Source of the DNA: Granulosicoccaceae bacterium
GTDB lineage: Bacteria > Pseudomonadota > Gammaproteobacteria > AKS1
Direction: 5' to 3'
DNA length: 24,231 nucleotides
NCBI GenBank assembly: GCA_050122215.1
Contig: JASFJH010000001.1
Coordinates: 1-24,231 of the forward strand
Part shown: piece after piece, positions 3,217 through 16,109 of the stretch
Position numbering within the stretch: the stretch's first letter is position 1
Layout: every line of letters begins with the position of its first letter
Program-made: the position numbers and the translations under genes
The notes under the pieces: generated by a model
Database searches by the model: none
The model's input: only the letters and a program-made list of their open reading frames with translations
What the model was told of the DNA's origin: nothing

Positions 3217-4422
3217 TTATTCGTAACGCAGGGCGTCGATGGGATCCATGTGCGCCGCCTTGCGCGCCGGGAAGAACCCGAAGATCACGCCGACCGCGGC
3301 AGAAAACAAAAAGGCCAGCAACATGATGCCGGGGCTGAGCACGACCGGGCTGTTCAGCAGCGAGGCCAGGCCAAAGGTACCGCCCACCGCGACAATGATG
3401 CCGATGACGCCACCGAACGACGACAACACGACCGCTTCGACGAGGAACTGCAGCAGCACTTCCCGTTCGAGGGCGCCGATGGCCAGACGGATGCCGATCT
3501 CGCGCGTGCGTTCGGTGACCGACACGAGCATGATGTTCATAATACCGATGCCGCCCACGAGCAGGCTGACCGCGGCCACCGCACCGAGCAGCGTGGTCAT
3601 CACCTCGGTGGTACCGGTCAACGCCTCGGCGATCTCCTGCATATCGCGAACGTTGAAATCGTCATCCTCGCTGGGCGAAATACGCCGACGCTCGCGCATG
3701 AGTAACTCGATATCACGTTTCACCTTGCTCGTGGCAATACCCTCGCGGGCCGACACGTAGATCATCTGCACATCCTGGTTGCCGGCAAGGCGCCGCCAGA
3801 AAGTACGCAGCGGTATGACCACGAGATCATCCTGATCACGCCCACCGGCCGACTGGCCCTTGGACTCGAGCAGCCCGACCACCTGGCAGGCGAGCTTGTT
3901 GAGGCGGATCTTTTCCCCTACCGGGTCCTGGCCGCCGAATAACTCATTACGCACGTTATCGCCGAGGATGCACACCGCGGCACCGGCGCGCAGCTCGCTG
4001 CTGCTGAATTCACGTCCCTTCGCCAGTGTCCAGTTGCCCACCGGAAAATAGTTGTTGTTTGTGCCGGTGACCGTGGTGGACCAGTTGCGGTTACCGTAGA
4101 TGGCAATCGAGGCTTGCGAAGCAATAGGTGCCACAGCGGCCACACCACCGACCTCTTCAGCGATGGCCTCGACATCATCCATATCAAAGGACTCGGCCGC
4201 CGAGCGTTGCCCGAAGCCGAGACGCTGGCCGGTGCGCACCATGAGCAGGTTGCTGCCCAGGCTGGCAATTCGCTCAGAGACCTGGGCGGTCGCGCCACTG
4301 CCCAGGTTAACCATAATAATCACGGAGGCCACGCCGATAACGATCCCCAGCATGGTCAGCGCCGAGCGCAGCAGGTTGCGGCGGATCTCGCGCAGGGCGA
4401 GCAGCAGGGCATTCCAGAACAT
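3217..4422 (-). CDS. MacB/FtsX-family ABC transporter permease
   Basis: RSALTMLGIVIGVASV in TM1, a large periplasmic domain, GGIGIMNIMLVSVTERTREIGIRLAIGA, and a C-terminal PIDALRYE. Confidence 0.95.
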   Translation of the reverse strand: MFWNALLLALREIRRNLLRSALTMLGIVIGVASVIIMVNLGSGATAQVSERIASLGSNLLMVRTGQRLGFGQRSAAESFDMDDVEAIAEEVGGVAAVAPIASQASIAIYGNRNWSTTVTGTNNNYFPVGNWTLAKGREFSSSELRAGAAVCILGDNVRNELFGGQDPVGEKIRLNKLACQVVGLLESKGQSAGGRDQDDLVVIPLRTFWRRLAGNQDVQMIYVSAREGIATSKVKRDIELLMRERRRISPSEDDDFNVRDMQEIAEALTGTTEVMTTLLGAVAAVSLLVGGIGIMNIMLVSVTERTREIGIRLAIGALEREVLLQFLVEAVVLSSFGGVIGIIVAVGGTFGLASLLNSPVVLSPGIMLLAFLFSAAVGVIFGFFPARKAAHMDPIDALRYE

Positions 4423-5147
4423 CAGCCAGCGCCTCCCTTGTGCGCCGCGCTATCAACGATCAGGCCGTCGAGAAAATGTACGACGCGGCGCGCATAGGCA
4501 GCCATCTCTGCTTCGTGGGTCACCATGATGATGGAGATACCCTGTTCCTCGTTGAAGCGCTTGAGCAGTTCCATGATCTCGAGACTGCGCGCGGTGTCCA
4601 GGTTGCCGGTAGGTTCGTCGGCGAGCAGTACGGCCGGCTCGGTGACAATGGCCCGCGCAATGGCGACACGCTGCTGCTGACCACCCGACAGTTCAGCGGG
4701 CGAGTGTTCCTCCCAGCCGGAAAGACCCACTTCGGCAAGCGCGCGGCGGGCACGCGCACGTCGTTCCGCCGCGGGAACCCCACGATAGACGAGTGGCAAC
4801 TCGACGTTCTCCAGCGCCGAAGTGCGTGCCAGCAGATTGAAGCCCTGGAACACGAAACCGATGTAATTGCGTCGCAACAGCGCGCGCTGGTTGCGCGACA
4901 GGCCACGCACGTCGACCCCTTCAAACAGGTAATGGCCTGCGGTGGGTGTATCGAGACAACCGATAATGTTCATACAGGTGGATTTGCCGGAGCCGCTTGG
5001 CCCCATCATGGCGATGAACTCGGCCTGTTCAATGGCGATGTCGATACCACGCAGGGCATGCATGGCCGCCTGGCCCTTGCCATACACCTTGGTGACACTG
5101 CGCAGCTCGATCAATGGTGCGGTGCTTGCGGCAGGTTGCGCATTCAT
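4422..5147 (-). CDS. ABC transporter ATP-binding protein (MacB/LolD-like)
   Basis: Walker A GPSGSGKST, signature LSGGQQQR, Walker B LLADEPTGNLD, H-loop VTHE. The stop overlaps the permease start (TGATG). Confidence 0.95.
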   Translation of the reverse strand: MNAQPAASTAPLIELRSVTKVYGKGQAAMHALRGIDIAIEQAEFIAMMGPSGSGKSTCMNIIGCLDTPTAGHYLFEGVDVRGLSRNQRALLRRNYIGFVFQGFNLLARTSALENVELPLVYRGVPAAERRARARRALAEVGLSGWEEHSPAELSGGQQQRVAIARAIVTEPAVLLADEPTGNLDTARSLEIMELLKRFNEEQGISIIMVTHEAEMAAYARRVVHFLDGLIVDSAAHKGGAG

Positions 5148-6418
5148 TTCTTCACGCTGATGGCGTCGACGATAATGTGCTGGCCGGCCTGGATCTCCGT
5201 CGTGCGCAACTCGGTAAACTTGCCATCACTGGCACCCGTCTTCACTGTCACTGCCTGCGGCTGGCCGTCACGCAGGATCCAGACTTTCTGGCTTGCATTG
5301 GCGCCGACATCAGGGCGGCGGCGTTCCGTCCGTGGCCGACGGAACATGGCGCCAAAGATCCCGCCGCCGTTGCGTTGCGTTGTCTTTGTGGCCGGCGGGG
5401 CAAAACGCAAAGCCGCGTTGGGAATCAACACCACATCCTGGAGCTGTTGCACGGTGATCACCGCGGTGGCCGTCATGCCCGGTCGCAGGGACAGATCGGA
5501 ATTGTCCACCGACAGGACCGTCTCGTAGGTGACCACGCCCTCGACGGTCTGCGGCGCGAAGCGCACCTGGCTGATACGTGCCGGGAAACTGCGCTCGGGA
5601 TAGGCATCCACGGTGAACAGCGCGGCCTGGTCTTCGGCGATCTTGCCCACATCCGCCTCATCGACGGCGACAAGCAGCTCCATGTGGGCCAGATCTTCGG
5701 CCAGCGTGAACAACACCGGTGCCTGCAGAGATGCCGCCACCGTCTGGCCCGGTTCGATCTGGCGCCGCAGCACGAGGCCGTCTATGGGTGAACGGATCTC
5801 GGCCTTGGCCAGGTTGGTCTCATGGGCATCCAGCGACGCCTGCGCCACAGCCACCTGGGCCCGGGCACTGGCCTCGGCGGCTTTGGCGCGCGCCTGTGCC
5901 GCACGCACAGTATCGAGTTCCTCGCTGGTACAAAGCTGCCGGGCAGCAAGCTTTTCACAACGTTGGTAACGCAGACGTGTTTCGACAACAGTCGCCTTCG
6001 CCTCTTCTTGCTTGGCCTTCGCCGATTCGAGCGCGGCGCGTGCCTCGATCACCTGGGCCTGCAGACGATCAGTATCCAGGCGCGCCAGCACCTGGCCGCG
6101 GCTTACCCGGTCGTTAAAGTCCACATCCACGGACTCAATGGTGCCGGACAGTTCGCTACCCACGTCGACCTGGTTGACCGGCTGTACCGCACCGGTGGCG
6201 GTGACCGTGACAGTCAGATCACCTCGCTGCACCTCGGCAGTTTCGTAGCGCAGCGCAGTGTCCTTCGACGGCCACAGCAGCATGTACATACCTGCCAGCA
6301 ACACCACCACTGCCGCCACGGCGGCCAGCCATAGCAGGCGCCGACGTGCGGGCGAGCGCCGCTCTGTGCCGAGGACCGCGCCAATATCTTCGTGGGGATT
6401 CGGATCGTAGTTTGCCAT
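5144..6418 (-). CDS. MacA-like periplasmic adaptor (membrane fusion protein)
   Basis: N-terminal TM anchor, ATGAVQPVNQVDVGSELSG, VDFNDRV..GQVLARLD, coiled-coil hairpin, IRSPIDG..GQTVAASLQAPVLF, VDEADVG, LRPGMTA. ATGA overlap with the ATPase gene. Confidence 0.95.
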   Translation of the reverse strand: MANYDPNPHEDIGAVLGTERRSPARRRLLWLAAVAAVVVLLAGMYMLLWPSKDTALRYETAEVQRGDLTVTVTATGAVQPVNQVDVGSELSGTIESVDVDFNDRVSRGQVLARLDTDRLQAQVIEARAALESAKAKQEEAKATVVETRLRYQRCEKLAARQLCTSEELDTVRAAQARAKAAEASARAQVAVAQASLDAHETNLAKAEIRSPIDGLVLRRQIEPGQTVAASLQAPVLFTLAEDLAHMELLVAVDEADVGKIAEDQAALFTVDAYPERSFPARISQVRFAPQTVEGVVTYETVLSVDNSDLSLRPGMTATAVITVQQLQDVVLIPNAALRFAPPATKTTQRNGGGIFGAMFRRPRTERRRPDVGANASQKVWILRDGQPQAVTVKTGASDGKFTELRTTEIQAGQHIIVDAISVKK

Positions 6419-6751
6419 CAGCGTTCACATCCCTGCCATCAGGACACAGCCATAATGAAAATGTTCACGAAACTATCGTGCCACAGTCATATGGCCGCCG
6501 TAAATGCAATACTGATCAGCCGCATTTTGCGCCTGTACGGCATCCTGACAGGAAGCAAGGCTTTAGTCTTTTGAGTAACAGGCACGGCGCAAAAATGCCG
6601 AAACTGGCAAAGCGCTCGCAGCCACACTGGAAAGGGTCAGACTCTGTTTTATCGGGGTGGCTTCGAGTGGGTAGGATTAACCAATGAAATTGCACGCACG
6701 CCGATATTTTTTCTGAACACTGCAAGCTGATTACTGCCAACTTTACTTATG

Positions 6752-7969
6752 TTATTCCTGACGTAATGTCGTATCTTTACCGGCTGGTTCCTGTTCACCC
6801 TGTTCCACCTCCCCGCTGTGGCGCAGGGCATAACGCGTCAGGATCGGGCCAACGATCTCGAACAACACGGTTGTGGCGATCACAATCGGCAGGATCTTTT
6901 GTCCCCATTGCGGAAAATGCTGCATCGACACGAGTGCCATGGCCATCGCAACACCTGCCTGCGGCATCAGGGCTACGCCGATCCATTTACCGCAAGCAGG
7001 GTCCCCCACTGCCATGCCACCAAACCAGCCTCCCGCAAGCCGACCGGCAATACGCAATACGACATAGCTGGCGCCTATCCAGCCCGCCGTTTCGAACATC
7101 GCCGGTTGTAGCGAGGCCCCGGCCAACACGAGGAACAGGATCAGGAACGGCATTTCAATATCGGCGATAGCATGGAACGGTCGTTGCGAGTGACGCGCGA
7201 AGTTAGCCACCGTCGCCCCCATGATCACCGTCGCCAGCAGGTAAGAGACTTCCAGGTGCATCGCCAGGCCGGTACACAGGAACACCATGCCCAGGGCCTC
7301 GATAAGCGTGAATTCACCACGGCGCAGACGACCGGTCAGGTAACTCATGGGCAGGCCAAGCAGCACTCCCAGACCGATACCGCCAACAAGTTCCCACAGG
7401 CCGTTCAACAGAATTGTACCATTACCGGTGCCGTCACCATTGAGCATGTGCCCGATGGACAGCAATACACTGAACAGAATCAGGCCCCAGGCATCATCGA
7501 CCGCAACGATACCAAGTAGCACGGAAGTGAAACGACCTCCTGCCTTTTGTTCCCGTACCGCATCCGAGGTCGCGACCGGATCAGTCGCCGTGGCAATGCC
7601 GGCGAGCAACAGCGCCATGCCGGCAGGCACGCCGATCAGCCACAAACCGCCAAACATGACCAGCGTGGTCACGATTACCACGGCCAGCGATATAATGATG
7701 ATATAGCGGCCATGCTGTTCCAGGTTATGTCGGCCAAGCTTCTCACCGAGCAGGAAGCCAATCATGACCAGTGCCAGGTTGGCAATAAACGGGAACCAGT
7801 TGCGGGTAAGGTCGGGCAGGATATCGAAGCCCGCCGGCCCAATTGCAAATCCAAACACCAGTAGCAGAGTGACACGCGGCAGGCGGGTACGACGGCCAAG
7901 CGTATTAATAAGCAGCCCGGCCAGCAGCAGTGCCCCGATGACAATGAAGGTCAGTGAGAGCTTTTCCAT
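6752..7969 (-). CDS. Monovalent cation:proton antiporter (CPA superfamily) without a C-terminal regulatory domain
   Basis: About 12 TM helices with LPRVT, ATATDPVAT, VAVDDAWG, FLVLAGASL, R..GRLAG and PQAGVA motifs of Na+/H+ exchanger-family proteins. Confidence 0.9.
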   Translation of the reverse strand: MEKLSLTFIVIGALLLAGLLINTLGRRTRLPRVTLLLVFGFAIGPAGFDILPDLTRNWFPFIANLALVMIGFLLGEKLGRHNLEQHGRYIIIISLAVVIVTTLVMFGGLWLIGVPAGMALLLAGIATATDPVATSDAVREQKAGGRFTSVLLGIVAVDDAWGLILFSVLLSIGHMLNGDGTGNGTILLNGLWELVGGIGLGVLLGLPMSYLTGRLRRGEFTLIEALGMVFLCTGLAMHLEVSYLLATVIMGATVANFARHSQRPFHAIADIEMPFLILFLVLAGASLQPAMFETAGWIGASYVVLRIAGRLAGGWFGGMAVGDPACGKWIGVALMPQAGVAMAMALVSMQHFPQWGQKILPIVIATTVLFEIVGPILTRYALRHSGEVEQGEQEPAGKDTTLRQE

Positions 7970-7999
7970 GTCTCACATGCTCTCATAGTCTGGCGGGGA

Positions 8000-8368
8000 T
8001 CAGAAGTCCGTGGGGGTTTTCGTGTCCTGCAGGATATAGGCGGTCTTCTCGGTATCGACCTCGTTCTCGTCAACAAACTTGAACTCGTTCCAGCCGATGC
8101 GGATGATGTCGTTGTTATGCAGGCGATGGCGGCTGACCTCGGCATCATTGACGAAGGTCTTGTTGGTACTGCCCAGGTCATTGACCCAGTACGTCAGGTT
8201 GCCGAAATTCTCATCCTGGTTCACTTCGACCTCGGCATGCCGACTGCTTACCGCAAGGTCGTCGATATGGACATCATTGTCTGTTGAACGACCAATCGTC
8301 AGTTTCGAACCTTGCAGTTCGAATTGATTGACGCCGACACCATCGACCATAAGTACAAGCTTTGCCAT
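8000..8368 (-). CDS. Stand-alone FHA domain protein (122 aa) with a Thr-rich C-terminal tail
   Basis: TIGR, VSSRHA, DLGSTNKTFVN (NGT-like, Gly replaced by Lys) and L.NNDIIRIG. AGGAG sits 7 nt upstream of ATG 8368, favouring it over the track start at 8398. Confidence 0.95.
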   Translation of the reverse strand: MAKLVLMVDGVGVNQFELQGSKLTIGRSTDNDVHIDDLAVSSRHAEVEVNQDENFGNLTYWVNDLGSTNKTFVNDAEVSRHRLHNNDIIRIGWNEFKFVDENEVDTEKTAYILQDTKTPTDF

Positions 8369-8381
8369 GCCGTGTCTCCTG

Positions 8382-9128
8382 CTATTGTGAACACTCAAGT
8401 ATTAATACGGATATATTGTCATCACCACCGGCGGCATTGGCCTGGCGAATCAGTTCATCGCTGGCGCGGGAAGCACTCTCGGCTCCCCGGAGTATGTGAT
8501 GAATTGCATCATCGTCAAGCATACCGCTCAGTCCATCCGAACAAAACAGGTAAACATCCCCGGGTTGTGTATCGAGTTGCCGGATGTGGGCCTCAACCTG
8601 GTCCTGGCTGCCGAGCGAGCGTGTGAGAATATGATTGAAACCGGAACCTTCTTTCTGTTCAGCCGTGATCACGCCCTCCTCGACCATTTGCTCGGTAAGC
8701 GTATCATCGCGTGTCAGTGCCACAAACTCGTCACCGCGCAGGCGGTAGCAACGCGAATCACCGATATGCGCGATGACCAGCCGGTCATCGCAGGCAAGCC
8801 CGGCCACGAGCGTGGTTGCCATCTGTGCCAGTTCGGGAGTTTGCTGGCGGCCCTCGAACACGATGTGGTTGGCCTCGGCAATGGCCTGCTGTAACAGGGA
8901 CTGCGGCTGGCATCCGGTGGCATCGCGCATGAGTTCGAGCGTCTTGCTACGCACGGCCTCGACCGCCAGCTGGCTCGCCACCTCGCCACCAGTAGTACCC
9001 CCTACCCCGTCGGCGAGCACGGCAAGCACGGTATGGCCGTCGCTGTCGAGGTACCAGTCGATACTGTCCTCGTTGTGCGCGCGGACCCGGCCGGTATCGG
9101 ATTCACCATATATGGAATAGTGCATCAC
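8382..9128 (-). CDS. PP2C/PPM-family Ser/Thr phosphatase (Stp1/PrpC-like)
   Basis: SDTGRVRAHNEDS, VLADGVGG, MATT, AHIGDSRCY, LTRSLG, FCSDGL and GGDDNIS; the metal-binding Asp residues are present. Start is GTG 9128 or ATG 9125. Confidence 0.95.
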   Translation of the reverse strand: MMHYSIYGESDTGRVRAHNEDSIDWYLDSDGHTVLAVLADGVGGTTGGEVASQLAVEAVRSKTLELMRDATGCQPQSLLQQAIAEANHIVFEGRQQTPELAQMATTLVAGLACDDRLVIAHIGDSRCYRLRGDEFVALTRDDTLTEQMVEEGVITAEQKEGSGFNHILTRSLGSQDQVEAHIRQLDTQPGDVYLFCSDGLSGMLDDDAIHHILRGAESASRASDELIRQANAAGGDDNISVLILECSQ

Positions 9129-9138
9129 GGCCTGACCC

Positions 9139-11394
9139 TCAAACCTTCTGCAAGGCCGCTGCCATGTCGCCGGCGGTCTCGTAACGCTTTTCCGGTTTCT
9201 TCTGCAGGGCCTTGTTCACAATCCGCGTGATCTTGATGCTTAGTTCAGGTCGCAGCTCGCGCACGCTGTTATGTTTCTTGTTTGTGATCTGGTAGGCGAC
9301 ACTGGCAAGGCTGTCGCCACGGAACGGTAACTCGCCGGTCAATAACTGGTACAGGGTGACACCGAGGCTGAAGATATCCGCGCGGCCATCCACTTTGGAC
9401 TGGGTCACCTGCTCAGGCGCCATGTACGACGGGCTGCCGAGCAGCGTACCGGTACGCGTGGCATTCGAGTCCGTAATACGGGCGATACCAAAGTCCGTAA
9501 TACGGACACGCTCATCATCCGGGTCATAGATAATATTACCGGGCTTGATATCACGGTGCACGATGCCTTGCCGGTGCGCATAATCGATTGCCTGTGCCAC
9601 CTGCGCGATGATATGGCAAACGGTTTCTATCGGCAGTAACTGGTCCGGCGCAGTCCAGGTACTGAGCGGTTTGCCGGCGGCATAGTCCATGGCGATGTAG
9701 GCGAGGTCGCCGTCTTCGCCGGCATCGAAGATCGTCACGATGTTCGGGTGGTTGAGTTTACCGGCGGCCTCCGCCTCGCGGAAAAACCGTGCCGTAATAT
9801 TCTGTGCTTCAGTGCTACTGAACTGTTTCAACTCCACGGTCTTTATCGCAACCTGCCGCTGGATTTTCGGATCGCGTCCGAGGTACACCACGCCCATCGC
9901 CCCGCGGCCGAGTTCCCGTTCAATCTCGTAGCGCCCAAGCACGGGGTTTTCCACACCGTGTGACGGCATGATCAGGGTCCGCGCACCGTTAAAGGCCGAG
10001 AGGGTACCGGTTGGATCACCGGCATGCTCAAGGGTATTGATCCGCGCACGCACGTCCTGGTAATTGCGTTGCCTGCTGTGCAAGTGCTTGAAGCATTCCA
10101 GCGCCCGCGTATATTTGCGTTGCCGCTCGTACTCGATACCAAGCCGGTACAACAAGGCCAGCGCCTCGTCACTGTTGTCAGACTGCTGCAGGGTGACAAG
10201 GGCATGTTCCAGCTCACCGCCATCAATCTGGTAACGCGCCAGTGTGCGCAAGGTCATGTCATGGTTCGCTGACAATGCAATAGTTTGTTGATGACGCTTG
10301 TGAGAGGCAAACACGAAGAAGTGCCCGAACACCAGTGCTGCCACCACCGTACCGAGCGGTAACCAGACCTGTTGTATGAGCATAAAACCGAATTGCGCGA
10401 CGAGGATCGCGCCTACAGCAATCGATGTCAGTAGCATGCTGGTCTGCGCGCGCAGGCGATGCAGCAACAACAAATAGCTCATGACAAGCAATGCCAGCAA
10501 TAGCTTGGCCAGTACTGCCCAGTAAGGGATCACCGCGGTTTGCCCGGCCAGCATGTCATCGAGCATGGTCGCGGCATTGATCATCGCCGGCTCATCGGCC
10601 GCACCGATCAGGACAATACGGTCTCGTAGCGCGGAATAATCGCGGTCGGCAATCAGGTCACGAAAGGCATACTGGCTGATAGCGGGCCGCAGACGGGTAG
10701 CCGGCAGGTGCAGACCGCGCAACTTGTGACTGATATCGGTACGGGACGGGGCATCGCCATGTTTGTTATACAGAAACGATACCAGGTCCTGCATACCATC
10801 ACTGGGCCGATACCAGACCAGCGGGTAATCGACCAGGGCATAACTATCGGCGACAGGCAGGCTGCGGTAACCGGGTACGGCGTCCTGGCGTAACGCCAGC
10901 GGCGACGGACTTGCATGCACGAGGCGCAGGGCCTGCGTATACCACGGATCAGCGTGTGGCCGGTTGACGATACCCTCGGCGGTGAAATCATAGGCACCCG
11001 CGGCCAGCTTGCCTGTAACGGTGCTGGTGGTGCGGCCAACGATGACCTCGTAACGGGCAAGATCAGCCGACAATTCAGCGATATTCTGATTTGTGATCAG
11101 CACCACGGCCATGGCGCCACTGGCACGGATCTGCGCGAGCCGGGGACTATCGACATACTCTTCAACCCGGGCGGCGGGCGGCAGGCTCAAAACCATGAGC
11201 CGGTCGCTGCCCTGTGGCCCGACGCTGATGTCGGCGGCCATACGGTACAGGCCATCATCAATGGCTTTTAACCACGGCACATGCGCTGCCGGAATGATGG
11301 CCAACAGGCACAAGGCCACGACGATGCCACGGGCACTGAACAACACTGGCCAGTGGCGGATAAATTGCATGATCTGCGTCTGTATCGTTGACAT
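9139..11394 (-). CDS. Membrane Hanks-type Ser/Thr kinase with degenerate CHASE2-like sensor, 3-TM bundle and TPR-like segment
   Basis: Kinase motifs intact: LGRGAMGVVY, VAIK, helix-C Glu (FFREAE), HRDIKPGN, DFG, GSPSYMAPE, DIFSLG. An N-terminal TM and three TMs flank a region ending ALRDRIVLIGA (CHASE2-like). Start uncertain: ATGs at 11445, 11421, 11394 and 11370. Confidence 0.92.
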   Translation of the reverse strand: MSTIQTQIMQFIRHWPVLFSARGIVVALCLLAIIPAAHVPWLKAIDDGLYRMAADISVGPQGSDRLMVLSLPPAARVEEYVDSPRLAQIRASGAMAVVLITNQNIAELSADLARYEVIVGRTTSTVTGKLAAGAYDFTAEGIVNRPHADPWYTQALRLVHASPSPLALRQDAVPGYRSLPVADSYALVDYPLVWYRPSDGMQDLVSFLYNKHGDAPSRTDISHKLRGLHLPATRLRPAISQYAFRDLIADRDYSALRDRIVLIGAADEPAMINAATMLDDMLAGQTAVIPYWAVLAKLLLALLVMSYLLLLHRLRAQTSMLLTSIAVGAILVAQFGFMLIQQVWLPLGTVVAALVFGHFFVFASHKRHQQTIALSANHDMTLRTLARYQIDGGELEHALVTLQQSDNSDEALALLYRLGIEYERQRKYTRALECFKHLHSRQRNYQDVRARINTLEHAGDPTGTLSAFNGARTLIMPSHGVENPVLGRYEIERELGRGAMGVVYLGRDPKIQRQVAIKTVELKQFSSTEAQNITARFFREAEAAGKLNHPNIVTIFDAGEDGDLAYIAMDYAAGKPLSTWTAPDQLLPIETVCHIIAQVAQAIDYAHRQGIVHRDIKPGNIIYDPDDERVRITDFGIARITDSNATRTGTLLGSPSYMAPEQVTQSKVDGRADIFSLGVTLYQLLTGELPFRGDSLASVAYQITNKKHNSVRELRPELSIKITRIVNKALQKKPEKRYETAGDMAAALQKV

Positions 11395-11536
11395 TATTAT
11401 TAATCTAGACGCATTTCGCATTGCGAAACGTGGCAGGTTTAACATTTCGGCGCAAAGACATGCTTTTTTGCCGTTCTACCACCAGCGCCTGATACGGTAC
11501 CGGCGGGGTTTACCTGATTATATAGAAGGACGGCTG

Positions 11537-12931
11537 TTATTTCTTCACGTGTTTCATCATGCGCTTGCGGCTACGTTGCTGGCGCGGGGTGAGCTTGTTG
11601 CGGCGACCCTGAAACGGATTGACACCGGTACGAAACTCGATGCGCACGGGGGTACCGCGGAAGTCCAGCACCTTCATGAAGGTGTTCATCAGGTAGCGCT
11701 TGTAGGAATTGGGAACGGCCTCGGTCTGGTTACCATGGATGACGATGATCGGCGGGTTCTGACCACCCTGGTGCGCGTAACGCAACTTGATGCGACGGCC
11801 ACGCACCAGTGGTGGTTGATGCGCCTCGAGTGCGTCTTCCAGAATACGTGTCAGTTGCGGCGTGGAGATCTTGCGCATGGCTGATTCGTAGGCCTTGTCG
11901 ACCGAATCAAACAGGTTGCCAACCCCGGTGCCGTGCAGGGCCGAGATAAAATGGATATCGGCAAAATCGATAAAGTTCAGGCGCCGATCCAGTTCCCGTT
12001 TCACCTCGTTACGATCATCCTGTGACAGGTTGTCCCATTTGTTAACGGCGATCACAAGCGCGCGGCCGGCATCGAGTACCTGGCCAAGCAGGTTCAGGTC
12101 CTGATCACTGATGTTGAGCCGCGCGTCGAGCACGAGGATCACAACATTGGCCGCATCGATCGCCTGCAGGGTTTTTACGACACTGAACTTTTCCACGACT
12201 TCCCTGATCTTGCCGCGGCGCCGGACACCGGCTGTATCGATCAGCGTGTACTCCTTGCCCATGCGTTCAAACGGGATAAAGATACTGTCGCGCGTGGTGC
12301 CCGGCATGTCGTAAACGAGCACGCGTTCTTCACCGAGCATGCGATTAACCAGCGTGGATTTGCCAACATTGGGCCGGCCCAGGACGGCGATACGAATGCC
12401 CTTCAGGTTGGCCTCGTCCTCCTGCCCGGTTTCCGACGGCGCAGGCAACAATCCGCTAATGGCTTCCACCATACGTTGCACGCCGCGACCATGGGCCGAG
12501 GCAATAGGCAGGGGCTCACCCAGGCCAAGCGCGTGAAACTCGGCAATCGCCATGTCGGCATTTACGCCATCGATCTTGTTGAGCACGAGGACGAAGGATT
12601 TACCGAGCTGACGTAACTGCGCAGCAATGGTTTCATCGGCCGTAGTCAGGCCATCACGTGCGTCCACCAGGAACAGGACGAGGTCGGCTTCCTCAATGGC
12701 CAGCAGGGTCTGCCCGGCCATGTGCACATCGATCCCTTCACGCTCGCCGCTCAGGCCACCCGTATCGATGACGATTACCTCACGTTCATCGATTTTGGCA
12801 TGACCATACTTGCGGTCACGGGTCATACCCGGTTGATCGGCAACGATCGCATCACGTGTGCGTGTCAGCCGGTTAAACAAGGTAGACTTGCCGACGTTCG
12901 GCCTACCGACAAGCGCGATAACTGGTTTCAT
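11537..12931 (-). CDS. der: Ribosome biogenesis GTPase Der (EngA)
   Basis: Two tandem G domains (GRPNVGKST twice, DTGG/DTAG, NKID/NKWD) plus a KH-like C-terminus. Confidence 0.99.
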
Positions 12932-12972: not shown

Positions 12973-14139
12973 TTAACCGTTGATACGTAATGCTGTGACG
13001 CGGCCATCCGAGCCACTGACAAAGATGGTATCATCCTTGATGATCGGCGCTGCAATAATCGGTGCACTGCCAACCCGGCTGCGCGCCACAAAGCTGCCAT
13101 CCCGGTTCGACATGACATGGATATAGCCTTCCAGGTCGCCGACAATGACATAATCCTTGTATACGGCCGGTGCGGTTAACTTGCGCGCATACAGTTTGTC
13201 CTGCTTCCAGTACGAGGAACCGCTACGGCGATCCAGTGCCCAGACCGCATCATTTTCATCGGTAACAAACAGGAACTGTTTGTCAGCAGACAGCCCGGCG
13301 CTCGAAGACATTTCCCGTCGCCACAGGCCACGACCGTTTTCAAGTGCCACGGTTGCCACGTTCCCCTGGTAAGTCACGGCATGCACAACACCGTCGGCGA
13401 TCAGCGGCTCAGCATCGATATCGACCATACGTTCGAGTTCTGAACGACCTCGCGGCACGCTGATCGCGGACTCCCAGATCAGGGCGCCATCCGACAGGCG
13501 CAGCGCAACCAGCCTGCCATCAGCCAGCCCGGCAACCAGGCCATTGCCATCAATCACCGGCGCACTGGCACCGCGCAATGACAACACCGGCACCTTGCTG
13601 TCGTAAATCCACAACCGCTTGCCGTCAGCCGCATTCAAACCGAAGATACGTCCATCAATACTGCGGGCAACCACCACGCCCTTACCAATCTGCGGGGTTG
13701 CCAGCACCTCGCTGGACACGCGGGTACGCCAACGTTCACTGCCATCGGCCTGGCTGAATGCGACAACCTCGGCATCGGCCGTGCCGACCAGCACGAGCCC
13801 TTCGCCACTGCCCGGGCCACCCCGTACTGGCAGCTTGCTCTCGATCTGCCAGAGCGTATCGCCCGACTGCACATCAAACGCGCTGATGCGCCCTTTCACA
13901 CCGGCGGCAAACAGGCGATTACCGTCAATGCTGGGCAGCAGGCGCACATACAACTTCTTGCTGGAACTGCCCGCCCTGGCTTGCCATACAGTATTGATAG
14001 TTGCCCTGGCCTTGAATTCTACCAGTTGCGCAGGCGGCGTCGTGTTGTCCTTGCCGGAGAAATAACCACTGACCGTTTCACCCAATGATGAGCAACCGTT
14101 CAGCAATACCGCCAATAGCGGTAACCACAGGTAACGCAT
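12973..14139 (-). CDS. bamB: Outer membrane protein assembly lipoprotein BamB
   Basis: Lipobox LLNGC, PQQ-like beta-propeller repeats (G..LW), and the canonical position between yfgM and der. Confidence 0.95.
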
Positions 14140-14795
14140 TACTTCTCCTCCGTTGTAACTGCCGGGGCTGCGGCAATATCATCAAGCTTGAGCTTCAATG
14201 TATTGCTTTGCTGCGTATCGTCCCCGGCAGCGGCCAGGGCACGATTATAGGCTTGGCGCGCGGCAGCGAGTTCACCCTTTGCCCGCGCAATGTCACCTTC
14301 GACCTCGGCATAGGCCGCGGCATAGGCACCCGGCTCGACCTTCTCAAGCACGGCACTGGCCGCGTCGCTGTTGCCGGCCGCAATCATCACGCGGGCCAGG
14401 CGCAGACGCGCGGCATGTTCAAGCTGGTCCTGGCGGGTATTGGCAAGTGTCCACTGCAGGTGTGCAGCCGCGGCATCAAGGTCTCCGGCCTCGACCGCCA
14501 GGCGGCCCTGGGCGAAGGCCGCCAGTGCGGCGTACGGCGTACGTTTGAAATCACTACGCAGGCTGTTTGCCTGTTGTTCCACGGCAGCCGCATTGCCGGC
14601 CTGCAGGTTCGTCATCAGCTGCTGGTAGATACGCGAGGCCTGGGCGGCCTGTTCATCACGGTAATCATTCCAGTAATTCCAGCCAAACAGCGCGGCAAAG
14701 CCGATGACAAGGCCCGCCACAACGGACAGACCATTGTCTTTCCACCATTGCTTGATCGCCTCGACTTGTTGTTCTTCCGTTTGATGTTCTGCCAC
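14139..14795 (-). CDS. yfgM: Ancillary SecYEG translocon subunit YfgM (TPR protein)
   Basis: EEQQVEAIKQWWKDNG, a single TM, TPR-like helices, RLARV and GDI motifs; lies between hisS and bamB. GTG start. Confidence 0.93.
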   Translation of the reverse strand: MAEHQTEEQQVEAIKQWWKDNGLSVVAGLVIGFAALFGWNYWNDYRDEQAAQASRIYQQLMTNLQAGNAAAVEQQANSLRSDFKRTPYAALAAFAQGRLAVEAGDLDAAAAHLQWTLANTRQDQLEHAARLRLARVMIAAGNSDAASAVLEKVEPGAYAAAYAEVEGDIARAKGELAAARQAYNRALAAAGDDTQQSNTLKLKLDDIAAAPAVTTEEK

Positions 14796-14831
14796 TGTTA
14801 TTCCCCAACCTTGATATATAAATTCCGTGAT

Positions 14832-16109
14832 TTATGCCTGGCAAACGAGCTCGGCCAGCCAGTTTTCCAGTTCGTCCCAGCTCATGCGCTGTTGTTCACT
14901 GTCACTGCGCAGATCCTTGAGTGTGACCTCGTTGCTCGCGACCTCTTCACTACCAAGGACGAGCGCCACCGCCGCGCCACTCTTGTCGGCCCGCTTGAAC
15001 TGGGCCTTGAAGCTGCCGCCGCCACAATTTACCACAAGTCGCAGGCCAGGCACGCGATCACGCAGCCGTTCGGCCAGTGCAGCGCCGGCAACCTCTGCCT
15101 CGCTGCCGGCCATAACCAGGTACGCATGCGCCGTCGACATGGGCACCTCGACACCACTTTCCTCGAGCAGGGCAATCAGGCGCTCGATGCCCATGGCGAA
15201 ACCGGATGCCGGGCAAGGCTTGCCGCCAAGTTGCTCGACCAGACCGTCAAACCGCCCGCCGGCGCAGACCGTACCCTGGGCGCCGAGGCGATCCGTGGTC
15301 CACTCGAATACGGTCTTTGTGTAGTAATCGAGTCCACGCACGAGACGCGTATTGATATCGTAGTCGATACCGGCCGCATCAAGCAGCGTCTTGAGCTGTT
15401 CAAAATGCTCGCGGGATTCATCATCAAGGTGATCGATAAGCTTCGGCGCCGCCTCGATCATGGCCTGCATGTCCGGGTTCTTGCTGTCGAGTACGCGCAA
15501 GGGGTTGGTCTCGAGCCGGCGCTGGCTGTCCTCATCGAGGATCGCCATGTGCTCGCGCAGGTAGTCCTGTAACACATCGCGGTAGGTGTGACGCGATTCA
15601 AGTGAACCGAGCGAGTTCAGCTCAAGCTTGATGCCGTCAAGGCCAAGCATTTTCCACAATCGCGCCGTCATGAAGATCAACTCGGCATCGATGTCCGGTC
15701 CGGCCAGGCCGAAGGTCTCGACACCGACCTGGTGGAACTGTCGATAGCGGCCTTTCTGCGGCCGTTCATGGCGGAACATCGGTCCGGTATACCAGAGCTT
15801 CTGGGTCTGATTCTGGATCAGGCCGTTTTCCAGGCAGGCGCGCACACAACTTGCGGTACCTTCCGGGCGCAGGGTCAGGCTGTCACCGTTGCGGTCCTCG
15901 AAGCTATACATTTCTTTCTCGACAATGTCGGTCACTTCGCCGATGGAACGGCAAAACAGTTCGGTGACCTCGACAATTGGCGTACGGATCTCGCTGTAGC
16001 CGTATGCATTGAGGAGTGTAGTGACTGTAAATTCAAGATGCTGCCAATACGGAGCGTGCACGGGCAGGATGTCATGCATGCCCCGGATTGCCTTGATGTA
16101 CTTCGCCAA
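14832..16109 (-). CDS. hisS: Histidine--tRNA ligase
   Basis: [58 protein letters not shown]. Confidence 0.99.

Follow-up and report, generated by a model that had tools for sequence, protein, structure and literature searches.

A 24,231-nt stretch of DNA from a Granulosicoccaceae bacterium (GenBank assembly GCA_050122215.1, contig JASFJH010000001.1, positions 1 to 24,231 of the forward strand; called the window below, at its full length) carries three adjacent minus-strand genes that encode a receptor Hanks-type Ser/Thr kinase, a soluble PP2C/PPM Ser/Thr phosphatase and a small FHA-only protein. The three genes probably make up one signalling cassette, intact, co-conserved and independent of type VI secretion systems (T6SS), whose products would act as a GarA-like switch. 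The system is not new in kind, since its parts are all known domains and a logic of writer, eraser and reader is already established. The cassette itself is real and intact, a widespread yet unstudied variant of such phospho-switches, found here in its minimal form. The window corresponds to the entire contig (C1) of a metagenome-assembled genome (MAG) of 2.06 Mb that is 83% complete, and statements on the genome as a whole are to be read with that figure in mind.

The three proteins of the cassette

A reading of the window made from the sequence without database searches (the sequence-only reading) had described three minus-strand genes separated by gaps of 10 and 13 nt and encoding an RD kinase with intact Hanks motifs, a PP2C phosphatase with intact metal-binding Asp residues and a phospho-threonine reader. 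All of this holds in the present analysis. The gaps measure 10 nt between the kinase and PP2C genes (13 nt if the phosphatase starts from the ATG at 9125) and 13 nt between the PP2C and FHA genes, and each of the three proteins is identified by profile scores well above, or in one case just at, the relevant cut-offs and by its signature residues.

The kinase gene (9139..11445, minus strand) encodes 768 residues from the ATG at 11445, and probably 751 residues from the in-frame ATG at 11394 (M18), which agrees with the starts of its orthologues; NCBI annotates the sister protein (95% identical) at 751 residues, with a start equivalent to M18. Kinase residues are numbered here from the ATG at 11445 (768-residue form). 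The catalytic domain (residues 506-756; 9178..9930, minus strand) matches Pkinase (PF00069) with an E-value of 6.8e-58, its 196.6 bits clearing the cut-off of 31.7, and the motifs GRGAMG, VAIK, HRD, DFG and APE are all present. The activation loop quoted in the sequence-only reading, DSNATRTGTLLGS, was confirmed in the translation; the segment from DFG to APE (9412-9495, minus strand) contains T663 and T665. K535, H630, D632, N637, D651 and T663 are invariant in the 41 family kinases compared, and T665 is found in 40 of them. Among solved structures the nearest to the catalytic domain is M. tuberculosis PknB (E = 3e-53), with StkP and PknA likewise among the closest. The PknB/Stk1 PASTA model NF033483 scored 312.9 bits, its cut-off being 450, over model positions 7-267, that is, the kinase domain only, and a profile search of the kinase matched neither a PASTA nor a vWA domain.

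Outside the catalytic domain, the kinase consists of a transmembrane (TM) helix, some 250 periplasmic residues, three further TM helices and a TPR-like stretch, the catalytic domain being C-terminal and the TM helices four in all. A hydropathy scan places the first helix at residues 37-55 (11281-11337, minus strand) and the other three at approximately residues 308-328, 336-356 and 361-381 (10300..10530, minus strand); this three-helix block is the best-conserved section of the N-terminal half. The cytoplasmic linker that follows (residues 383-495; 9961..10299, minus strand) resembles TPR_1 and TPR_2 at sub-threshold E-values of about 1e-3 and is conserved over the 41 kinases. It contains T490 (T-L-I-M; codon 9976-9978), kept in 32 of the 41 kinases; the stretch around this residue is rich in Gly, Ser and Ala and immediately precedes the catalytic domain.

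The phosphatase gene (8382..9128, minus strand) encodes 248 residues from the GTG at 9128 or 247 from the ATG at 9125. Its product matches PP2C_2 (E = 2.4e-18; 66.9 bits against 24), reaches the cut-off of the Stp1/IreP NCBIfam model NF033484 by the narrowest of margins (230.1 bits against 230) and has the PP2C motifs NED, DGVGG, GDSR, SDG and DDN, the metal-binding Asp residues included. The nearest solved relatives are of the cyanobacterial type (5d2u and 2j82, E about 1e-41) and PstP is found at 2e-34; PppA (6jkv) is detectable as a PP2C relative with an E-value of 6e-22.

The FHA gene (8000..8368, minus strand) encodes 122 residues and starts most plausibly at the ATG at 8368, located behind an AGGAGA sequence, rather than at an upstream TTG. 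The match to PF00498 is strong (E = 4.3e-20; 72.4 bits against 20.7), and 19 partner FHA proteins share without exception the phospho-threonine-binding residues G26, R27, S41, H44 and N69. In the AlphaFold2 (AF2) model, the confidence score (pLDDT) exceeds 90 in the core (residues 1-100; 8069-8368, minus strand) and lies between 50 and 60 in the tail (residues 101-122; 8003-8068, minus strand), which is probably flexible. The tail carries T109 (codon 8042-8044), in the motif E-K-T-A-Y-I-L, about 9 residues past the last strand of the core. This threonine is otherwise invariant, being kept in 51 of 53 FHA partners, the two exceptions having a Thr two residues further on; long-form FHA proteins of the family have the equivalent motif F-E-K-T-M-I-I-R-P. 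Since the pLDDT of the tail falls to 50-60, the conservation is unlikely to be structural. FHA domains commonly prefer Ile or Leu at position +3 from the phospho-threonine, which is what the T109 motif offers, and its acidic upstream and hydrophobic downstream residues fit the sites reported for PknB-type kinases. The gene is the sole FHA match found in the genome. Its product has Rv0020c (FhaA), GarA and OdhI near the top of its solved and NCBIfam matches; the GarA/OdhI model NF041660, with its cut-off at 200, gave 52.9 bits, the protein has no N-terminal tail, and the TagH/Fha1 model TIGR03354 gave a weak domain-level match of 35.7 bits against 120.25.

A degenerate CHASE2-like sensor

The periplasmic domain of the kinase (residues 56-305; 10531..11280, minus strand) remained below the threshold of the Pfam CHASE2 profile (PF05226; 14.2-14.5 bits against 26.3, over profile positions 160-201 only), whereas orthologues from other families match CHASE2 with E-values of 1e-30 to 1e-53. 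By profile-profile comparison, topology and fold, the domain is nonetheless homologous to CHASE2. A profile of the Granulosicoccaceae N-termini was aligned by hhalign with a profile of the CHASE2-positive orthologues (probability 99.2%, E = 2.9e-19, 339 columns). The AF2 model of the domain (mean pLDDT 78) was compared by Foldseek with AlphaFold Database clusters; the top 30 matches (E = 5e-11 to 2e-7) are mostly named CHASE2 or have outputs typical of CHASE2 proteins (cyclase, histidine kinase, PPM phosphatase, Ser/Thr kinase). The fold match is supportive rather than independent, because the AF2 alignment contained CHASE2-positive relatives. Compared with relatives, the domain is shortened by about 100 residues and the conserved N-terminal CHASE2 motif region is missing from the match, which identifies it as a degenerate CHASE2. 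Thus, the CHASE2-like periplasmic domain of the sequence-only reading stands as regards homology and fold, with the qualification that it is degenerate and below the Pfam cut-off.

The CHASE2 domain was described by Zhulin et al. 2003, as cited in PMC2877116. The CHASE2-kinase architecture figures in domain surveys from 2003 to 2010 (PMC2176072, PMC2877116), cyanobacterial CHASE2 Ser/Thr kinases are listed, as uncharacterised, in one of them (PMC2176072), and CHASE2 adenylate cyclases of S. meliloti have been studied (PMC13001267). A literature search, conducted outside subscription journals, retrieved no study characterising a CHASE2 kinase together with a PP2C and an FHA protein. The proposal that the system is undescribed is supported insofar as no characterised orthologue was found in the papers searched, but not for the kinase architecture, which was already in those surveys.

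Conservation and spread of the cassette

Both the sister genome G001 and four species of the family's next genus (G003, locus L037; G005, G006 and G007) show the order der>kinase>PP2C>FHA; a contig end interrupts one of these four loci. Two further species of that genus, more divergent ones (G002 and G004; loci L103 and L104), of which one has a closed genome, lack the triad both after der and genome-wide, reflecting either loss in one branch or a polymorphic insertion at one fixed position. Outside the family the gene order recurs, amid quite different neighbours, in Marinobacter (about 40 genomes), Ectothiorhodospiraceae, Lysobacteraceae, Acidiferrobacterales, Thiohalomonas and others. The neighbourhood survey thus bears out, across many families, the co-conservation of the three genes on which the sequence-only reading depended.

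For a less biased picture, an evenly drawn sample of 300 Gammaproteobacteria genomes from 271 genera was queried with the TM-TPR linker of the kinase. The linker was found in 63 genomes, representing 58 genera (about 21%). Gene order was established for 40 of the 63 kinase-positive loci: 24 have kinase>PP2C>FHA, one breaks off behind PP2C where the contig ends, four have kinase and FHA only, and in the remaining 11 the kinase stands alone. No fourth gene common across lineages emerged among the approximately 65 loci whose neighbours were clustered. A word-indexed protein search with the linker (residues 290-505) returned 4 close relatives only. These results change one element of the sequence-only reading: what had been proposed as a stand-alone, undescribed switch is neither rare nor singular, and is a reduced member of a cassette family present in about one in five sampled genera.

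A maximum-likelihood tree built on the TM-TPR-kinase part separates three groups. Clade A members combine a strong CHASE2 domain with a PP2C and with an FHA protein of the long form (208-249 residues), composed of a core, a Thr linker and a second, degenerate FHA-like domain; a CHASE2-adenylate/guanylate cyclase gene is a neighbour in eight sampled loci, and several loci have a gene for a cyclic nucleotide monophosphate (cNMP)-binding-rhodanese protein or one resembling metallo-beta-lactamase/class-II phosphodiesterases. Clade B is like clade A with an additional short FHA gene behind the long one, and has ruvAB-tolQRA as neighbours. Clade C (support 95/97) has the short FHA only, and no recurrent neighbours were found for it. 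The window belongs to a sub-clade of C (100/100) along with Granulosicoccaceae, Marinobacter, and Ectothiorhodospiraceae and Lysobacteraceae MAGs; in the members tested, CHASE2 is weak in Pfam or absent (Marinobacter). No cyclase, cNMP-binding protein or phosphodiesterase gene adjoins the triad in the sampled loci of the window's clade, and no CHASE2 cyclase was found in the window's genome (83% complete), where the two class III cyclases are a HAMP-cyclase and a cyclase-AAA_16 protein. The short FHA protein, the degenerate CHASE2 and the lack of a nearby cyclase identify the window as a reduced form of the cassette. Judging from gene neighbourhoods, clade A would link Thr phosphorylation to cyclic-nucleotide signalling, a link that is absent from the window's clade.

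Several additional features of the family were recorded. The clade A cyclases measure 745-770 residues, and often a cNMP-binding-rhodanese gene lies directly upstream or a gene of the metallo-beta-lactamase/class-II phosphodiesterase-like kind is present (examples at L128, 5774-6880 and 14118-16355, and L138, 1945-4996; further clade A loci are L119, L130, L132, L137, L143, L145 and L029-L031). In the long FHA proteins the second domain follows an Ala/Pro-rich linker and is without the Ser-x-x-His and Asn residues (L029, 10632-11354; L030, 6402-7136; L084, 10396-11025); a separate short FHA gene stands behind the long one in eight sampled loci. Marinobacter loci (L041, 7659-9428; L067, 7593-9293; about 40 others) retain the TM helices, TPR-like linker, kinase and PP2C, and their FHA protein, of 116 residues, has the identical E-K-T-A-Y-I-L tail. 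Two more kinase-phosphatase pairs, both soluble and neither with an FHA gene, are encoded in the window's own genome: a 310-residue kinase with a 293-residue PP2C on contig C50 (L002, 561-2371) and a 244-residue short kinase-like protein with a 267-residue PP2C on contig C43 (L148, 1576-3782). The C43 pair directly follows a gene for a thioredoxin-HEAT protein, and similar small kinases are found in related genomes.

Proposed mechanism

The mechanism that we infer is modelled on PknB-PstP-GarA, and each of its steps reaches beyond the existence of three intact, co-conserved proteins. A periplasmic or membrane cue would alter the oligomeric state of the kinase, which would autophosphorylate on T663 and T665 and probably also on T490 in the linker. 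The FHA protein would then dock on a phospho-threonine of the kinase and become phosphorylated on T109 in its flexible tail. Phosphorylated T109 (pT-x-x-Ile) would fill the FHA pocket, leaving the adaptor freed or re-targeted; as only about 9 residues separate T109 from the core, binding in trans appears likelier than in cis. The PP2C would reset both the kinase and the FHA protein. The downstream target lies outside the cassette. It seems conceivable, although we consider it rather doubtful, that the tail threonine and the T-L-I-M motif of the kinase define a cycle of docking, phosphorylation and release that is shared by a large family of CHASE2-kinase cassettes in Gamma- and Betaproteobacteria, with the window's clade as its minimal form. 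If so, the cassettes would be the Gram-negative equivalent of the GarA/OdhI switch, with a C-terminal instead of an N-terminal acceptor, and the window's clade, lacking the CHASE2 cyclase, would be the simplest system in which to look for the target of the adaptor.

Four short contigs from two wetland metatranscriptome libraries cover parts of all three genes at 95-100% identity. They hint weakly at transcription, DNA carry-over being possible.

A number of observations weigh against the interpretation of the triad as a single GarA-like signalling unit. No transcript joins the three genes into one operon, none of the four RNA contigs bridging a gene junction. The triad is not obligatory, since 11 of the 40 kinases examined stand alone and some lineages are without the PP2C. 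As for the sensor, the hhalign match begins only past the conserved N-terminal motif region of CHASE2, and ligand binding may have been lost along with that region; in the Marinobacter kinases (533-597 residues) the periplasmic domain has gone entirely. Phosphorylation of T109 and T490 and the binding of either by the FHA domain are predicted from conservation and motif shape. Finally, with the genome 83% complete, partner genes may have escaped assembly.

Alternative explanations

Writer, eraser and reader are also what the PpkA-PppA-Fha1 pathway contains, and the triad could conceivably be a threonine-phosphorylation pathway of this type, controlling a T6SS whose genes fall in the unassembled 17% of an 83% complete genome; the weak domain-level match to TIGR03354 (35.7 bits) points the same way. 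That score is, however, far under the cut-off, and the kinase domain lies C-terminal, behind a CHASE2-type sensor, unlike in PpkA. The sequence-only reading had noted the lack of T6SS genes in the window, which a profile search of the window's proteins bore out, and had called for a check of the genome, where neither VipB nor Hcp was found. VipB was not found either in the triad carriers G001, G003 (99% complete), G005 and G006 or in the closed genome G031, and in the class sample it occurs in 5 of 63 kinase-positive genomes versus 54 of the 237 others (59/300 in all). None of about 100 loci examined has T6SS neighbours. A T6SS pathway is thus exceedingly improbable, and the absence of T6SS holds family-wide, given the rarity of VipB in kinase-positive genomes and an FHA protein far below the TagH/Fha1 model. 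More room is left for control of cell-envelope growth or division, as exerted by PknB-PstP-FhaA/FhaB in Actinobacteria, with the sensor reading an envelope cue. The catalytic domain is nearest to PknB, StkP and PknA and the FHA protein near Rv0020c (FhaA), GarA and OdhI; the cassette sits in a rodZ-ispG-hisS-yfgM-bamB-der block in the window's family, adjoins tolQRA in another clade and is found downstream of a lytic transglycosylase-LysM gene in a third. Against this, neighbourhoods vary by lineage with no consistently adjacent envelope gene, PASTA domains are missing (the PknB_PASTA model giving its 312.9 bits, versus 450, over the kinase domain only), and the recurrent neighbours in clade A are cyclic-nucleotide genes. 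On balance, such control of envelope growth or division is unlikely.

Two further possibilities concern defence and ion transport. The PADLOC models PD-T4-6 and mad6 match the kinase with E-values down to 1e-90 and the PP2C weakly matches PDC-M21C, as might be seen if a kinase of the Stk2 or PD-T4-6 type, restrained by the phosphatase, served in anti-phage defence by phosphorylating proteins of the host or the phage upon infection; the patchy distribution within one genus (absent from G002 and G004, present in G003, G005, G006 and G007) would suit such a role. These matches, however, span only the generic catalytic domain (residues 500-768), as they would with any Hanks kinase, and the FHA protein has no PADLOC match. 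In two genera the cassette occupies the same site behind der, among housekeeping genes; elsewhere its neighbours are ruvAB-tolQRA or dap genes. In none of the surveyed loci were genes of a defence island recognised next to it, and its GC content is not anomalous. To our knowledge, defence kinases are not usually built with a periplasmic sensor and four TM helices. A defence role is accordingly very improbable. The other possibility is that the output of the system is the cation/proton antiporter encoded directly downstream (6752..7969, minus strand; Na_H_Exchanger, E = 1.5e-34), the FHA protein or the kinase gating ion transport. The antiporter gene is co-directional, begins 30 nt past the FHA stop codon with no terminator-like site seen in between, and retains this arrangement in G001. 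Yet it follows the triad in no other lineage (none of about 100 other loci), the next genus of the family having an opposite-strand gene at this place, and its adjacency in two genomes that are 95% identical does not amount to independent evidence. As a conserved fourth gene the antiporter was rejected, adjoining the triad only in the window's genome and in G001; as output of the system it is improbable. That kinase, phosphatase and FHA protein form one signalling cassette remains the preferred reading.

Genomic setting

The genes flanking the cassette are nearly all on the minus strand and follow a housekeeping order typical of Gammaproteobacteria: hscB-hscA-fdx, ndk, rlmN, a TPR protein gene, rodZ, ispG, hisS, yfgM, bamB and der, then the triad. 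On its 3' side come the antiporter gene, a neighbour outside the conserved cassette, and a MacAB-type efflux set. Promoter and terminator counts in a scan of positions 6500-11700 were not above those of shuffled sequences and do not inform on operon structure; the same scan gave no terminator-like site in the gaps within the triad or in that between the FHA and antiporter genes. The GC content of the triad (0.56-0.59) matches that of the flanks, so that no compositional sign of horizontal transfer is seen. On the plus strand, opposite yfgM and hisS, a 495-residue open frame (14085-15572) can almost certainly be put down to chance in GC-rich sequence rather than to a gene. In the sister genome G001 (L025, 12680-13042), the antiporter gene is directly followed by a 120-residue piece that corresponds to no more of the MacB permease than its C-terminal FtsX part. 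Between the two 95%-identical genomes, the macA-macB efflux genes (3217-6418 in the window) thus differ, through a deletion or a difference in assembly.

Comparison with known systems

What is known of Ser/Thr phospho-signalling among Gram-negative bacteria comes mostly from T6SS control and from a few isolated kinases. The cassette family described here is found in roughly a fifth of the sampled gammaproteobacterial genera. To this family the window adds a minimal three-gene form, without the cyclic-nucleotide genes of its relatives, evidence that the sensor may decay or vanish while kinase, phosphatase and FHA protein persist, and a hypothesis that is cheap to test, namely that T109 is at once a substrate of the kinase and a ligand of the FHA domain.

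The cassette resembles the PknB (PknG)-PstP-GarA/OdhI system in combining a transmembrane Hanks kinase and a PP2C with a small FHA-only protein that has a candidate acceptor Thr in a flexible tail. The two activation-loop threonines, T663 and T665, are placed as in PknB, where their counterparts are T171 and T173. The differences are equally clear. The sensor is of the CHASE2 type and N-terminal, in place of the C-terminal PASTA repeats of PknB, and the PP2C is soluble, unlike that of the PknB-PstP system. The candidate acceptor is C-terminal and about 9 residues from the core, whereas GarA has an N-terminal ETTS tail, and the proteins of the cassette remain far short of the cut-offs of the OdhI and PknB models. 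GarA/OdhI proteins are further characterised by their binding to 2-oxoglutarate dehydrogenase, GDH or GOGAT.

With PpkA-PppA-Fha1, which controls the H1-T6SS of P. aeruginosa, the cassette shares the status of a proteobacterial trio of kinase, PP2C and FHA protein. The sequence-only reading had considered the kinase architecture distinct from that of PpkA, and rightly so: PpkA carries its catalytic domain at the N-terminus and a vWA domain in the periplasm, whereas the kinase here has the opposite domain order and lacks a vWA domain. At 122 residues, the FHA protein falls below the TagH/Fha1 cut-off, and no T6SS was found in the genome or in most family-positive genomes. The topology of the kinase is that of CHASE2 receptors, in which a TM helix, a periplasmic domain and three TM helices precede a cytoplasmic output; here the periplasmic domain is sub-threshold and without the conserved N-terminal motif region, and the output is a kinase, whereas the CHASE2 proteins studied are cyclases. 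With the cyclase-linked cassettes of clade A, finally, the window shares the kinase family, the gene order and the conserved Thr after the FHA core, and it differs from them by a short FHA protein in place of the two-domain long form and by its degenerate CHASE2.

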